The position numbers and the translations under genes are program-made. From Octopus sinensis (taxonomy: Eukaryota), in NCBI RefSeq assembly GCF_006345805.1, contig NC_043010.1:40238001-40302000 (forward strand): a stretch of DNA of 64,000 nucleotides. Direction: 5' to 3'. Below the pieces are notes generated by a model. The model saw only the letters and a program-made list of their open reading frames with translations, did not search any database and was not told the DNA's origin. Positions 10,445 through 58,010 of this stretch are shown here, piece after piece. The number at the start of each line of letters is the position of its first letter. Positions within the stretch are counted from its first letter, which is position 1.

Positions 10445-10598
10445 ACAAAAAAAAAAGGTGTATTAGTTTAACGCAAGGGAATGTGAGAGAGTATTTTACA
10501 TTTCGAGCCTACGCTCTTCAACAGAAAGGAACACGAAAAAATAAACAGAGAGAGAATAAAAAACAGTTTTAGCGGCTAGCGGTCAATCGTGGCCGCTA
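10445..10598 (-). mobile_element. Short HHR-bearing repeat (family of 38419-38940); hammerhead at 10494-10528
   Basis: Minus strand: ttt CTGTTGA a gagc gtag gctc GAAA tgta aaa; similar to 38460-38600. Confidence 0.65.
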
Positions 10599-10641
10599 TA
10601 TATATATAATCAAAATAAGCAACAAGGATATCCAGAGGTAA

Positions 10642-10728
10642 TGCAGTACGATCGTTTCATGCAACTCCATTTAAATGAACAATGCAATCATTACATCAAT
10701 TTAAAATAAAGAACAATCTTCAGCTGCA
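10642..10728 (-). ncRNA. Type I hammerhead ribozyme with extended stem II
   Basis: Minus strand: tgcag CTGAAGA ttgt...gcat GAAA cgatcg TA ctgca; perfect 5-bp stem I, palindromic stem III ACGAUCGU, GUA cleavage triplet. Confidence 0.8.
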
Positions 10729-11857
10729 CAAAGACATAGAATTTAATTAAATTAGAACAGAAGGACACATTAGTATAAGTTCACCTAATATCTCCAATAA
10801 GTTAAGGAGATAGAGAAAGAACATATTGTACCTACAACATTATAGTTGTTACAAGATTATACAAGTTACTGGTTTTTACTTCAAATTTAGCAAGGTAACT
10901 CTATTTTTGTAAGTTCATTTTATGTGATTTTAAGTTTACTAATCTTACGCAATGTATACCTATCCGGATTATTTTCTAAGTTTTTGTAGAAATGTTGCTC
11001 ATATGTTTAAATGCCATTTCTCTATAATGGGATTTGTCCATTATGACCATTCTCCGTCCTTTGTCCGCCTCTTTAATAATTATTGAGTGATCTGTTTGTA
11101 AAGATTCCAAAACGCTTTCTTCCTCATGCTTGATATATAATCAGAGTATCCTCCGAACACTAAAACGTATGAGACTAATATTATTGTGTTCTCACAGCTA
11201 ACATTCGAAATGTTTCACCTGCTTTTCTCGTGCACTCTTGACCACAAACCAGCCTTCTATCAAATTTACTCAGAAGGCATGGGGAAACTGAAGGCAATAG
11301 CAAAATACACTTACACAAGGCGCCGCGCGATTTAACCAAACGTGAAACTACGCGGCTGGAGACAGAGCTTCTAACCACGCAGCCATCTCTGTGCATAAGT
11401 AATGGAAAGTTGTTTAATAAAACAAGGCAGAAATTATAAATCCGAACAGGACTCGATACAACTTTATAGTAACTGTACAGGAAATGGTTATAATCTACAG
11501 ATTTAATGTTTTTCTTAAGAATTTCCGGTTTTCTAAATTAAATATAAGGTTTTGTATGTGTATAGATGTGTTTGAGAGAGCGTCTCTGGGTGTGTGCGTG
11601 TCTGTGTGTGAGTGTATCTGCAATTTATATGCATATATATATCATATGCATATGTATTTTTCTTTATAAATGTTAAATAATGCACATTAAATATGTTACA
11701 TATTTATGTATGTGCGTGCATTTATATCGATATATGCATACATAGAAATATACTCACCCATCGACATAGCGAGAGAGACACACACACACACAAACATTTA
11801 TATACTATATTTTATACACGGAGAGTATTACGTATAAATATACAAATCATTGATATA

Positions 11858-53770: not shown

Positions 53771-55211
53771 TATATATATATATATATATATATATATATA
53801 TGAAATACCACGTTTACTCACACGGACACACATATACCCCGACATGTTAGAATTGGTAATGTAACGTGTGGAGCTTAAAGTCGAACTTCGATCGCCTTAC
53901 AACAAAGTGGAAAATAGGGGAACAATTCACACCATATGTTACATGGCCAAAAGAATATAAGCTATGCGTAGGTGAAAGAACTCAGATCATTATCAGATCG
54001 AAGAACTCTAACACACTGCTCAATTCTATATTCGAAATTATCAGCTGTTTTAAATATATGGTTAAGTTCCTGTTGAGAAATTGAAAAGAGCCACTCCCCT
54101 CTGGATTGGATAGCTGTGCCACAGATTCTAAGCCATTATATTTCAGCCTTATGCTTACATTCTAATTTCCCACTTCTGCTTCTTTCTGTTTTCGTTTTCT
54201 GAGTTCTTTTTCTGAATCTACTTCTTCCTTGACTTTTAGCAATTTTCTCCCATCCTATCATCCCATTTGTAGTTTGTTATCCCATGTGAGCAGTACCTGA
54301 AGATTGCGCTGAGACGCCAGACGTGTTAGATAATACAGGTTGGCATGCTCTCATCACGTGAATCTAACAGTTGCACTTAACATATATTGTGCTTATTAAA
54401 TAATATTTATCTATCAACAGACGGAGTACTTTTTCTTTACCTTGCCATCAAGGAACATTGCAATGTGTTTGTGTATGTATGTGTGAGTGTGCGTGTGCGT
54501 GTGCGTGTGTGTTTGTGTGTGTGTGTGTGTGTGTTTGTGTGTGTAATTTACGAAACCTGTTTCGGTAAAATTTTAATGGAGTCGTAGAAGACTTACATCA
54601 TAATATGCAATCTGCCACCATCAGGTAATATTTTAAACAGGTACGTTTTTAAAAAGGTAAGATTCTAAACATCCACCAGGGCATAGCCTCGCTTGTACAT
54701 ATTGATAGGGGTGACTATATTCATATATCTGAATATATGTATTAAGTGTTATGCACCAAGTTTCAGGCAACCGTTTTGCACATAGAAATCTGAAATTTTA
54801 GATAGGAGCATATCTTCAGAATAAGGTAATAAACAAATTTCTATTAGGTATACCAGACGAAGCCACATCGCAGAAAATATCGCAAGGAAAGATAGTTCAA
54901 GCCAACCCATACTGCTTTATAAGGTCCGAAGCTGGAGAGGCTGCTAGTAGCTGAGTCTAAAATAAACAATCAGCGCTTATAATGGCTGTGCCAATAGCAT
55001 TAGTACTAATGGCGATTACAGCCTCTGGCTGAAACCGATAATAGAATAATAATGAGGTAAATATATCTGCAGGATCAGCATTTTCAGGAAACTCTATTTG
55101 GTGATGTTTAATCGATATTCATATACTTATATACATTTATATATACATTGCAATACATTCTAGGTTAAAGGATTGGGAATTTTCGTAGGGTTCCAAGAAT
55201 ACAACAAAATT

Positions 55212-56272
55212 TGTTATGCATATAAAACAGAACTGTCGGTTAAAAAGATATTAGGCAAAAAAATAAAAACATGAATATATATTCAAAATTCAGCTACATT
55301 TTGTGATATGAATAATTTGGAATACTTCAGAGTCGTTTAGCTTTAAAAATGAAATCAATAAATATATCATCCATTATGTGTGGTAGGATAGAAAATAGCA
55401 TTTAAATGTAAAAAGCTAAAATAATGGAAGTGCTGAATAAATCTCAAGCTTATTTGCATAAATGAAACTACAATGAGCCACGAGAAACAACTCGGTGTTA
55501 CGGGTAGCATATATTTAAACAACAATGAATAATAAATGTATATTAGATCATATATATGGTGTTTTAGAAGTCACTTGGGTATGTAGAAACTTCATAACAT
55601 GCCAACATTTTAAATACTTTTTTTTATTTCCAAATCGTAGATTTTGTCGGATAAAGTACCCAAGAAAAAAATTTGCAATTAACCAAAGAGCCAAATTATT
55701 GAATTTTATTTTGAATTGTAACTCGTCCATCATTTATTCCTAAAGACTTTTCATTGCCTTAAAAGCCAACGTCAGATTTCATGAGTCGATGCTTGATTCC
55801 CCGTTTCAGATAATATAATTCAGTAAATACCTAGCACCTCACTGTCCGTCCACAGTACGTGCGATTCTGTTAAACAAGTACCAAGAACATCAATTAACGC
55901 ATGCACTCTGGCCACTTGAAGATATCTCAGATGATATTGCATTGCTTAAAAAGAGACTATTTGTACCTGTAGCCATACAAAATGCAATTGATTCAGAAAA
56001 TACGAATGTCAGATCAACAACGCTTAAATTACGCGGTCCATATAGAGAGGCTTGTTATGCATATAAAACAGAACTGTCGGTTAAAATGATATCAGACAAA
56101 AAAAAAAAAGGATGGAATGGTATATATATTCAAAATTCAGCTACATTTTGTTATATGAATAATTTGGAAAACTCTAGAGTCGTTTAGCGTTAAGAATGAA
56201 ATCAATAAATATATCATCCATTATGTGTGGTAGAATAGAAAATAGCATTTAAATATAAAAGCGCAAAATAAT
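55212..56272 (+). repeat. ~215-bp direct repeat pair (55212-55427 / 56052-56272)
   Basis: tgttatgcatataaaacagaactgtcggttaaaa...gaaaatagcatttaaat shared. Confidence 0.85.
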
Positions 56273-57356
56273 GAGGATAAAGAATTTGAAGAGTGACAAG
56301 GTTCATTTTCATTTCAACAGTTTTGGTAAGAAGGAGAACTGTGGAATCAGCGGATAAAAGAATCCTAAAATATCCAACCTCTCAAATGTGATGTAACTTA
56401 GGAAATATTTACTATACCTTTTTCTTTTGAGTTGAAAATTGCAATTAGATGATAATAAGCAGTGAATTGTATCGGTTCATAACCGTGACATTGCTGCACC
56501 CAGCAGTAAAGAACAAACCGAAGATGTAAAAATTGCCAAGTTAGAGATAGAATCTGTGCAGAAATTGGAGAAATGTAACCAGAGAGTTTGTCTATTGTCT
56601 ATCGGAAAGCTGCGCCAATGTAAAGTCGAAAGACGGAGATGATTTACGTCATGTAAATTTCCTAATTAAATTAGGATTTATTTCCAGTGTCTGAATTCGT
56701 GTTCTGTATATAACTATATAATAAAAATGTAGACACTATACGATTTTAAAATCTCTAGTAAACTTCTAGAGTACCATGTTAAATATAAATGTTTGATTTA
56801 TTCCATGTTTACACATTTATTCATTATCTTATATATGCATTCATATACAACCATAACCATATACATTACTCGCTTCGAACCAGTTCAAAGGTTCTTTTTT
56901 AAACTTTTCTATTTCTTTCATATTCACCATGGTAGATAAAACGCTAACACAAGAAATGGAAAGCACGCAGTCATTGTTACTGTATGTGCGGAACACAACG
57001 ATTTAGAGACTGTCAACTTTATGAATGCTGCATGATCATTTGTACACAAAGTTCGAATGCTGTTGGAAGCTTCTGACGAGATTAATTTTTGCATACACAC
57101 ACGCGTGCACACACACACATACGTACATGCATACACACAATTATATATATATATATATATATGTATATATATATAATATATATATATATATATATATTAT
57201 ATATATAATGTATATATATATATATATATATTATATATATATATATATATATATGTATGTATATATATATATATATATATATATATATATGTATATATAT
57301 TATATATATATATATATATATATATATAATATTATATATATATATATATATATATA

Positions 57357-58010
57357 GCGCGTATTGTGTCTGGGGAGAGTCATTCTCTTATAGTGCCTTA
57401 TTACTTAACACATTCACCGGTTCGATTTCCACTCAATTACTAATTTATTTTTTCTAAAATTTTCATTGCACCTTGCAACCTCTTCAATAGTCACGTGAAT
57501 TAATATTTCACATTGTGTTCTAGAAGTTTAGTAGCGATTTTAAAATCGTATAATTTCTACTTTCTTTTTATTTTTCAAAAATAGTTATTTACAGAGCACG
57601 AATTTCCTCAGCTAGAAATAGACTCCGACATATCTTAGACCGGTACAACAAAACCACAAAAAAACATAATGAGGGAGAGACCCACCAACTCAGTTCGTCT
57701 ATTGCCAAGGGCCTACAAAAACTCAAACGGCGATTTAAGAACAGGGAATTAGTGTGCTTCCATACGGACAAGTCTGGCAGACTGTCGAGAGACAGTCAGA
57801 ACAGAGAGTCAACGATAATGGAAGGGGTTGCAAGACGCAACGAACATTTTAGAAAAGATAATAAGTAAATGGGTGGAAATCGAGCCAGTGAATGTGTTAA
57901 GAAATGTGGCACTAAAAGAGAATGACTCTCCCCAGACGAAACAAAATATGCTTCGACACACGAATTCACATAAATAATCTTGCAAGCGAAATACAGAAAT
58001 GAAATATATA
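57357..58010. mobile_element. Decayed PLE derivative: inverted pLTR-like arms around an RT N-terminal fragment
   Basis: 57367-57490 inverted at ~57815-57937; 57701-57787 reads IAKGLQKLKRRFKNRELVCFHTDKSGRLS (PLE DKG motif); decayed HHR at 57454-57490 (-). Confidence 0.7.

Follow-up and report, generated by a model that had tools for sequence, protein, structure and literature searches.

The minimal hammerhead ribozymes described for metazoan Penelope-like elements (PLEs) lie within the pseudo-long terminal repeats (pLTRs), are mostly solo, form many families per genome and cleave weakly as dimers (PMC4209133). The role of these hammerheads is still open (PMC7761336). A Penelope protein nicks AT-rich DNA and reverse transcription starts at two nearby internal sites resulting in an optional tail; the hammerhead needs the protein for cleavage, mutation of its core leaves insertion in vitro normal so that cleavage is dispensable there, and no reads ended at the cleavage site (PMC11167929). 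Fixed 3' ends with variable 5' ends, inverted halves and TA targets have been described as marks of Penelope-like insertion (10.1101/2021.04.23.441226, PMC3846280). Retrozymes, for which units of 350-390 bp were reported in mussels (PMC7229834), have been argued to be non-autonomous PLE derivatives in a preprint that does not mention cephalopods (10.64898/2026.07.22.740005). Here, we analyse hammerhead motifs in a 64,000-nt stretch of the 2.72-Gb genome of Octopus sinensis (C14:40238001-40302000; 34% GC, microsatellite-rich), the whole of which is referred to as the window. We consider it very likely that these motifs represent minimal hammerheads of type I from the pLTRs of PLEs, most copies being short 3' end-pieces in (TA)n.

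Hammerhead motifs in the window

Type I hammerhead-like folds with a self-complementary stem III are present at all 17 places named in the original prediction, which had been made from the letters alone. A strict descriptor, demanding an exact CUGANGA, GAAA, a palindrome, UH and stems I and II, found four sites in the window and none in each of 25 local dinucleotide shuffles. A scored scan returned 19 sites at a score of at least 27 compared to a mean of 0.2 expected from 10 shuffles, a threshold that was chosen after the window had been seen and is thereby biased in the window's favour. The predicted motif density withstands the comparison with shuffled sequence by both measures. The 19 scored sites comprise 16 of the 17 predicted ones, site 38754 being too decayed for the scan, and three newly found on the plus strand (41345, 51114 and 51685).

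Chance matches in an AT-rich, microsatellite-rich genome have a vanishingly small probability as the source of the motifs and are refuted for the set as a whole by this excess, by exact-pattern controls with no match compared to 13,792 and 682 matches for the families F2a and F1, respectively, and by paired changes among the relatives of family F7 described below. Only single weak sites could be chance matches, the weakest, 57454 and 10494, sitting at the score threshold. The other point in favour of chance is that Rfam reports no hammerhead, neither among the best 150 of the 262 window matches, which hold only microsatellite-driven microRNA matches, nor in 12 sampled loci, where the gathering score was not reached. 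Folded as monomers, only F7 (z -6.5), 35385 (z -2.9) and 43978 (z -2.5) among ten sites were better than shuffles, and the folds of the latter two are not hammerheads; poor monomer folding is expected of dimer-type motifs and is not decisive.

By a fixed rule (core intact or with U3-A8, H not G, stem III self-pairing) seven of the 17 sites are intact (10642, 19349, 27016, 31538, 34382, 43978 and 53395), two of them carrying a mismatched basal pair, in stem I for 34382 and in stem II for 43978. An intact core had been claimed for 10642, 19349 and 31538, which is confirmed, and for 35385, which instead carries C at position 16.1, a position occupied by U in all of the 14 other copies. Site 53395 was considered as decayed and this was rejected, its UUGACAA being present in 15 of 15 copies and representing the known U3-A8 pair.

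The sites do not represent 17 independent ribozymes; they go back to about 12-13 insertions that fall into about 10 families. Window self-comparison assigns the six AGUACU sites to one family, F1; three ACGU sites belong to family F2a and the fourth to the related F2b. The flanks, thought to be unrelated between families, are 75% alike over about 100 nt at 30459 (ACAUAUGU) and 34382 (ACACGUGU). The idea of one distinct stem III word per family had to be abandoned, and with it the word as a family barcode, since ACGU, ACCGGU and ACAUAUGU recur in unrelated families.

Probable Penelope-like origin, the element F1 and the unit F7

The location in pLTRs is supported by F1 and F2a, both running upstream into Penelope reverse transcriptase (RT)/endonuclease coding sequence. 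Among 24 long F2a copies, 8 have RT, linker and GIY-YIG ahead of the motif in the same orientation, and copies of F2a carry a CSRPRCxTC-like cysteine linker. In six families the best matches in the genome have a constant 3' boundary shortly past the hammerhead and 5' ends that vary, and inverted 5' halves are frequent in F1, F6 and F7. TA tracts follow downstream at up to 330 nt in 10/10 loci of F1, 18/20 of F2a, 18/20 of F3a, 16/20 of F4, 11/15 of F6 and 6/15 of F7, compared to 24% at random positions. By family majority, F1, F3a, F4, F6 and F7 have a type I core, both stems I and II and a stem III able to pair with itself; F2a departs from this core at position 6. The link to PLEs and retrozymes drawn beforehand is right.

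Several observations weigh against a Penelope-like origin of all motifs. For F3a, F4 and F6 a Penelope ORF is only weakly linked, with protein matches at 2/19, 0/19 (plus the window copy) and 3/14 loci, respectively, and 14 of 108 random 10-kb stretches hold such a match as well. For F3b, F5, F8 and the three extra sites a parent element was neither sought nor found. Of 65 motifs sampled across the genome, a single one is preceded on its own strand by a Penelope protein match no more than 1.5 kb away, a figure which fits heavy truncation and is no proof of origin.

Following published work, the element protein would nick AT-rich DNA and begin copying immediately 3' of the hammerhead. When reverse transcription into (TA)n microsatellites stays incomplete, short 3' end-pieces are likely left behind, and even the shortest insertion would carry the motif. 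The motif density would then reflect the activity of the elements and no host function would be needed. Two motifs carried by one tandem transcript may dimerise via stem III, which would allow weak cleavage, probably aided by the element protein; solo and opposite-strand copies would be mostly inert.

Two F1 sites lie in the pLTRs of one full-length PLE with a Neptune/Nematis-type linker (12403-17249, plus strand, 4.85 kb), located between (TA)n tracts. The pLTRs (12403-12976 and 16674-17249) are 99.3% identical and contain one hammerhead each (12755-12789 with stem III AGUACU and 17027-17061, both on the plus strand with the core CCGAAGA, i.e. U4C); copies elsewhere (L297-L299) are 98-99.6% identical to the window element. 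Its RT-linker-endonuclease open reading frame (ORF; 14194-16521, plus strand, 775 amino acids) shows GLKF, DKG and YLDD motifs, a CX4CX2C linker and GIY-YIG. The Pfam match to GIY-YIG (686-772) is above the cut-off and that to RVT_1 (289-440, 27.9 bits) just below the cut-off of 29.6. The linker between both domains, CNDSRCGTC, agrees with the CX2-5CxxC pattern of Neptune, which is shared with Nematis. Among 7,998 scored proteins 2,842 are homologues, which have the same Pfam families; the named ones are mostly from bivalves.

Upstream lies ORF1 (12998-14287, plus strand), having no Pfam match and with its reading frame shifted by one base at an A-run near 13616 in the window; it is unbroken in the copy L298 (467 codons from stop to stop, about 430 amino acids from the first Met). 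The RT ORF is in the -1 frame to ORF1, the overlap (14194-14287) spans a run of seven T, and there is no Met ahead of the conserved GLKF motif. None of the top 120 homologues is longer than 803 amino acids. The junction is identical in five element copies across the window and L297-L299, and no indel is listed for it in contigs of four runs. From the sequence, a programmed -1 frameshift at the overlap is possible; no strong structure is predicted downstream of the junction (-6 kcal/mol), and a literature search found no report of a programmed frameshift in Neptune-type elements. With two overlapping ORFs, F1 departs from the single-ORF layout of endonuclease-containing (EN+) PLEs.

The other four F1 sites stem from one locally duplicated inverted-pair fragment. 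At 18666-19558, including an inverted 5' half, the hammerhead 18693-18727 (minus strand) has G at the cleavage position and 19354-19388 (plus strand) is intact. In the copy at 26848-27859, which arose by a local inverted duplication (18666-20483 versus 27748-25925, 97.7% identical), 27021-27055 (minus strand) is intact and 27687-27721 (plus strand) has G at the cleavage position. As assembled, the region further contains apparent tandem local duplications (19891-21848/21843-23803 and 23495-24133/24069-24711), the local set, inverted one included, being 96-98% identical. A 76-nt piece of the F1 interior (14044-14119) lies between the inverted halves at 19073-19146 and 27264-27338, suggesting a template jump during insertion.

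Family F7 occupies 53177-53769 (minus strand) between (TA)n tracts, where a 358-nt non-coding unit is present 1.5 times together with an inverted 5' piece; its hammerhead (53401-53433, minus strand) has a U3-A8 core, the stem III word ACUGCAGU and a long helix I. The longest open frame of the unit comprises 74 codons, and folded as a circle the unit reaches z -4.2 with none of 100 shuffles being as low. In a set of 15 loci, two of which are the same place resulting in 14 distinct ones, 14 of 15 stop at one of two 3' points, unit position 124-127 or 169-174, which are separated by about 46 nt. The loci are mostly longer than one unit, extending into the F7 unit again, and 10 of the 14 distinct loci contain the inverted piece. 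Exact tandem pairs number eight in the genome, with arrays of two to three hammerheads spaced by 351-358 nt. F7 has thus the non-coding unit of 150-450 bp with a type I hammerhead in tandem that defines non-LTR retrozymes. None of 23 loci has a Penelope protein match, and no autonomous parent could be linked to F7 by sequence. These features make F7 likely a non-autonomous, retrozyme-like passenger moved by the Penelope machinery. Its tandem copies are predicted to be cut to 358-nt monomers, and circular RNA appears plausible only for this unit.

Relatives of F7 (67-79% identity) have ACUCGAGU, ACCCGGGU, ACCUAGGU or ACCGGU in place of ACUGCAGU, so that five perfect palindromes are interchanged as stem III within the superfamily. 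In an alignment of ten chosen sequences 96% of the cells are paired and 10 of 20 pairs show changes at both partners; stem III is paired throughout the set, and positions 3 and 8 are either C3-G8 or U3-A8. In 500 shuffles, only 0-1 were as good on four measures and 465 on the fifth. These percentages are inflated, the sequences having been picked by a score that rewards pairing. Two of the stem III words recur at independent loci, which selection bias does not create.

Whether most families are retrozymes, being transcribed, self-cleaved and circularised into many small circular RNAs, has to be weighed at this point. F7 fits such a description by its 358-nt length, lack of a long ORF, strong predicted fold, tandem arrays and compensatory changes, four further sampled motifs have self-repeating flanks, and one of 15 F6 loci (L077) shows a direct repeat at a spacing of about 500 nt. 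However, F1 and F2a are the ends of coding elements, no unit repeat spans the motif in F3a or F4 (20 loci each), and exact F7 tandem pairs are restricted to the eight in the genome, rendering this generalisation improbable. The preferred reading of truncated Penelope-like ends is retained for the bulk of the motifs. Contigs assembled from four runs, which are not on record as RNA, show neither starts nor ends nor informative joints. Those joining the end of the F1 ORF via the pLTR back to its beginning were considered as circles and rejected, being explained by repeat collapse. Hammerheads with flanks repeating at about 330-500 nt were observed at L153:5703 (minus strand), L217:288 (plus strand) and L184:8334 (plus strand), two of them with 10-nt stem III words; these are candidates for other retrozyme-like units.

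Genome-wide density, host transcripts and further features

To put the window into context, 108 evenly spaced 10-kb stretches (1.08 Mb) at round coordinates of 28 of the large contigs were sampled, 12 stretches adjoining the window being left out. At a score of at least 27 they contain 65 motifs compared to 3-4 in shuffles, corresponding to a shuffle-corrected density of one per 17.6 kb (95% interval 13.4-24.3 kb) and by lenient extrapolation to about 155,000 motifs genome-wide (112,000-203,000). The strict descriptor found five in 800 kb, i.e. about six per Mb or about 17,000 genome-wide. The density of one ribozyme per 4 kb originally stated is therefore right for the window (one per 3.4 kb) and does not extend to the genome, the window being about five times denser than the average and its flanks containing one per 13 kb (nine motifs in 120 kb). 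Among 200,000 draws of resampled stretches a count of 19 motifs never occurred and one of 14 was reached in 0.03%; the window thus stays a local peak when duplicates are merged. F1 is clumped, with 682 exact motif copies in the genome and six family members in the window.

The large radiation that had been proposed is borne out by the roughly 155,000 motif-bearing fragments of many families, as counted by the lenient scan. Family sizes obtained by DNA search (795-1,343 candidates) are lower bounds. Given the respective genome sizes, published counts amount to a similar density per Mb, with differing descriptors. These counts are about 9,000 hammerheads in Xenopus tropicalis, 4,000 in the coelacanth and 2,000 plus 1,300 in Schistosoma (PMC4209133), as well as more than 6,000 type I motifs in 16 families in Acropora (PMC7229834). 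In our sample, 25 of 55 motifs with a score of at least 28 look intact and 30 are damaged in the core or the palindrome. Motif counts in genomes of this kind are made up largely of dead insertion ends.

The about 25 intact-looking motifs per 1.08 Mb would offer many chances for host transcripts to be cut, raising the question whether the host keeps dense motifs to cleave read-through or intronic transcripts. Most copies, however, occur alone or in opposite-strand pairs and lack a partner in cis, and within the window only 12750/17022 and 38521/38754 are close same-strand pairs with the same word; the first two both carry U4C, the others both U at position 6 with one being decayed. Unlike stem III words pair mostly weaker than -3 kcal/mol, most self-pairs reaching -4.8 to -11.1 kcal/mol, copies decay at core positions and no host exon was recognised in the window. 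Cutting of host transcripts by most sites seems unlikely because the stem III dimer needs two same-strand copies with the same word, and we regard retention by the host as very improbable.

The remaining families of the window complete this picture. F2a hammerheads are located on the minus strand at 10497-10524 (core CUGUUGA with U at position 6, stem III decayed to AUGU), 38525-38552 (CUGUCGA with U at position 6, ACGU) and, decayed with changes of G5, A6 and G12, at 38759-38786, ending a longer F2a copy that extends to about 39280. The F2b hammerhead (43981-44007, minus strand) combines an intact core and ACGU with a C-C mismatch at the stem II base. Long stems II are present in the minus-strand hammerheads of F4 (10647-10723; intact core, ACGAUCGU), which has a PLE RT fragment upstream on the same strand (10853-11137), of F3b (30464-30548; U4A, with the word given above for 30459) and of F3a (34388-34470; intact core, the word of 34382, mismatch in the first pair of stem I). 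F5 (31544-31577, minus strand) has an intact core and ACUAGU; the genome DNA search matched only itself, and, this search skipping common words, its rarity is not established. In F6 (35390-35432, plus strand) the family word AUCGGU self-pairs via G-U, and the window copy is the one with C at 16.1. F8 (57457-57487, minus strand) is a weak hammerhead-like motif with AAUU at the score threshold. The three extra sites on the plus strand, missed before, are a hammerhead with intact core and ACAAUUGU (41345-41432) and two hammerhead-like motifs, one with a U3-A8 core and an imperfect 10-nt stem III word (51114-51147) and one with a U4C core and AUAUGU (51685-51746).

The window also holds direct repeats of about 220-240 nt, 89-93% identical and without scored hammerhead (55211-55426/56052-56273 and 40257-40496/61458-61701). 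A short repeat resembling short interspersed nuclear elements is found near microsatellites in copies of 70-84% identity (744-1174, 21223-21484, 23163-23441, 25193-25376), with more copies at 43400-43714, 48897-49074 and 50403-50848. A Tc1/mariner transposase remnant is located at 58722-59742 (plus strand; Pfam HTH_Tnp_Tc3_2, E 1e-16) and a non-LTR retrotransposon 3' end (zf-RVT), interrupted by an (ATT)n tract, at 6596-7734 (minus strand).

Core variants and comparison with known systems

F2a is the commonest sampled family with 17 copies in 1.08 Mb, corresponding to about 43,000 by extrapolation. Its exact pattern, with positions 6 and 7 left free, has 13,792 genome matches, only 140 of which have A at position 6; U occupies this position in 99 of the first 100 matches listed. 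U4C is present in 51 of the first 100 F1 copies listed (counted by hand), by which its interpretation as private damage of 12750 and 17022 was rejected, and in all ten hammerheads of the four full-length loci (window and L297-L299) of F1, a young family; long contigs from two of four runs show no difference at this base. The same change marks a subfamily of F2b (four of eight sampled copies: L117, L126, L169 and L213) and therefore arose in at least two families. U4C, A6C, U3-A8 and U10.1-U11.1 are described natural hammerhead variants, U4C and A6C being of low activity (PMC3088659). A literature search for A6U and hammerhead found no report of A6U in hammerheads, twister being matched instead.

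A tentative reading, which we judge possible yet doubtful, is that coding Penelope families spread with weakened cores (U at position 6 in about 99% of F2a, U4C in the youngest full-length elements), keeping fold and palindrome, and that the 358-nt passengers kept working cores and swapped their palindromes among five. If so, the hammerhead of autonomous elements would serve mainly as a structural or protein-binding signal, true catalysis being confined to the circular passengers, and the genome would provide a natural mutant series for the open role of Penelope hammerheads. The window itself is ordinary and its class of motif known; the value lies in the scale and the natural variants. A core base has changed in a family of about 40,000 copies, and beside it stands a retrozyme-like lineage with compensatory palindromes; together they allow testing whether cleavage, dimer formation or only the fold is selected.

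The radiation had been called unannotated; the hammerhead class is already in print (PMC4209133), and two papers on cephalopod repeats name Penelope among the abundant or recently active elements, the words ribozyme and hammerhead being absent from both. Literature searches combining hammerhead or Penelope with octopus found no cephalopod hammerhead census.

Compared to the minimal hammerheads of metazoan PLEs (PMC4209133), our motifs are alike in being of type I with a short helix I and palindromic helix III, in the U3-A8 covariation, in an extra base after A9 in some families, in their many families per genome, in the copies being mostly solo, in opposite-strand pairs 100-700 bp apart and in only few of them residing in pLTRs of full elements. 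They differ in that several families have 8-nt palindromes and a stem II that is 40-60 nt longer, in the U at position 6 of the commonest family and in numbers, about 17,000 (strict) and 155,000 (lenient) versus 2,000-9,000, the genome being large and the methods different.

F1 resembles the Neptune/Nematis EN+ elements in its RT, CX2-5CxxC linker, C-terminal GIY-YIG and pLTRs as well as in the inverted 5' copy, the tail and the microsatellite targets; unlike the canonical single-ORF layout, an upstream ORF overlaps the RT ORF in five of five copies (10.1101/2021.04.23.441226). F7 shares with animal non-LTR retrozymes (PMC7229834) the non-coding unit of about 350 nt, a single type I hammerhead, the occurrence as monomers to trimers and strong self-pairing, and differs in directly showing the Penelope insertion signature with two fixed 3' ends, inverted 5' piece and TA targets. 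U3-A8, U4C, U10.1-U11.1 and palindromic stem III are shared with the natural core variants on record (PMC3088659), for which A6C of low activity is described, in contrast to the A6U in tens of thousands of F2a copies reported here. The hammerhead class being known, the fixed core variants, the compensatory palindromes of F7 and the two-ORF layout of F1 are the findings worth keeping.

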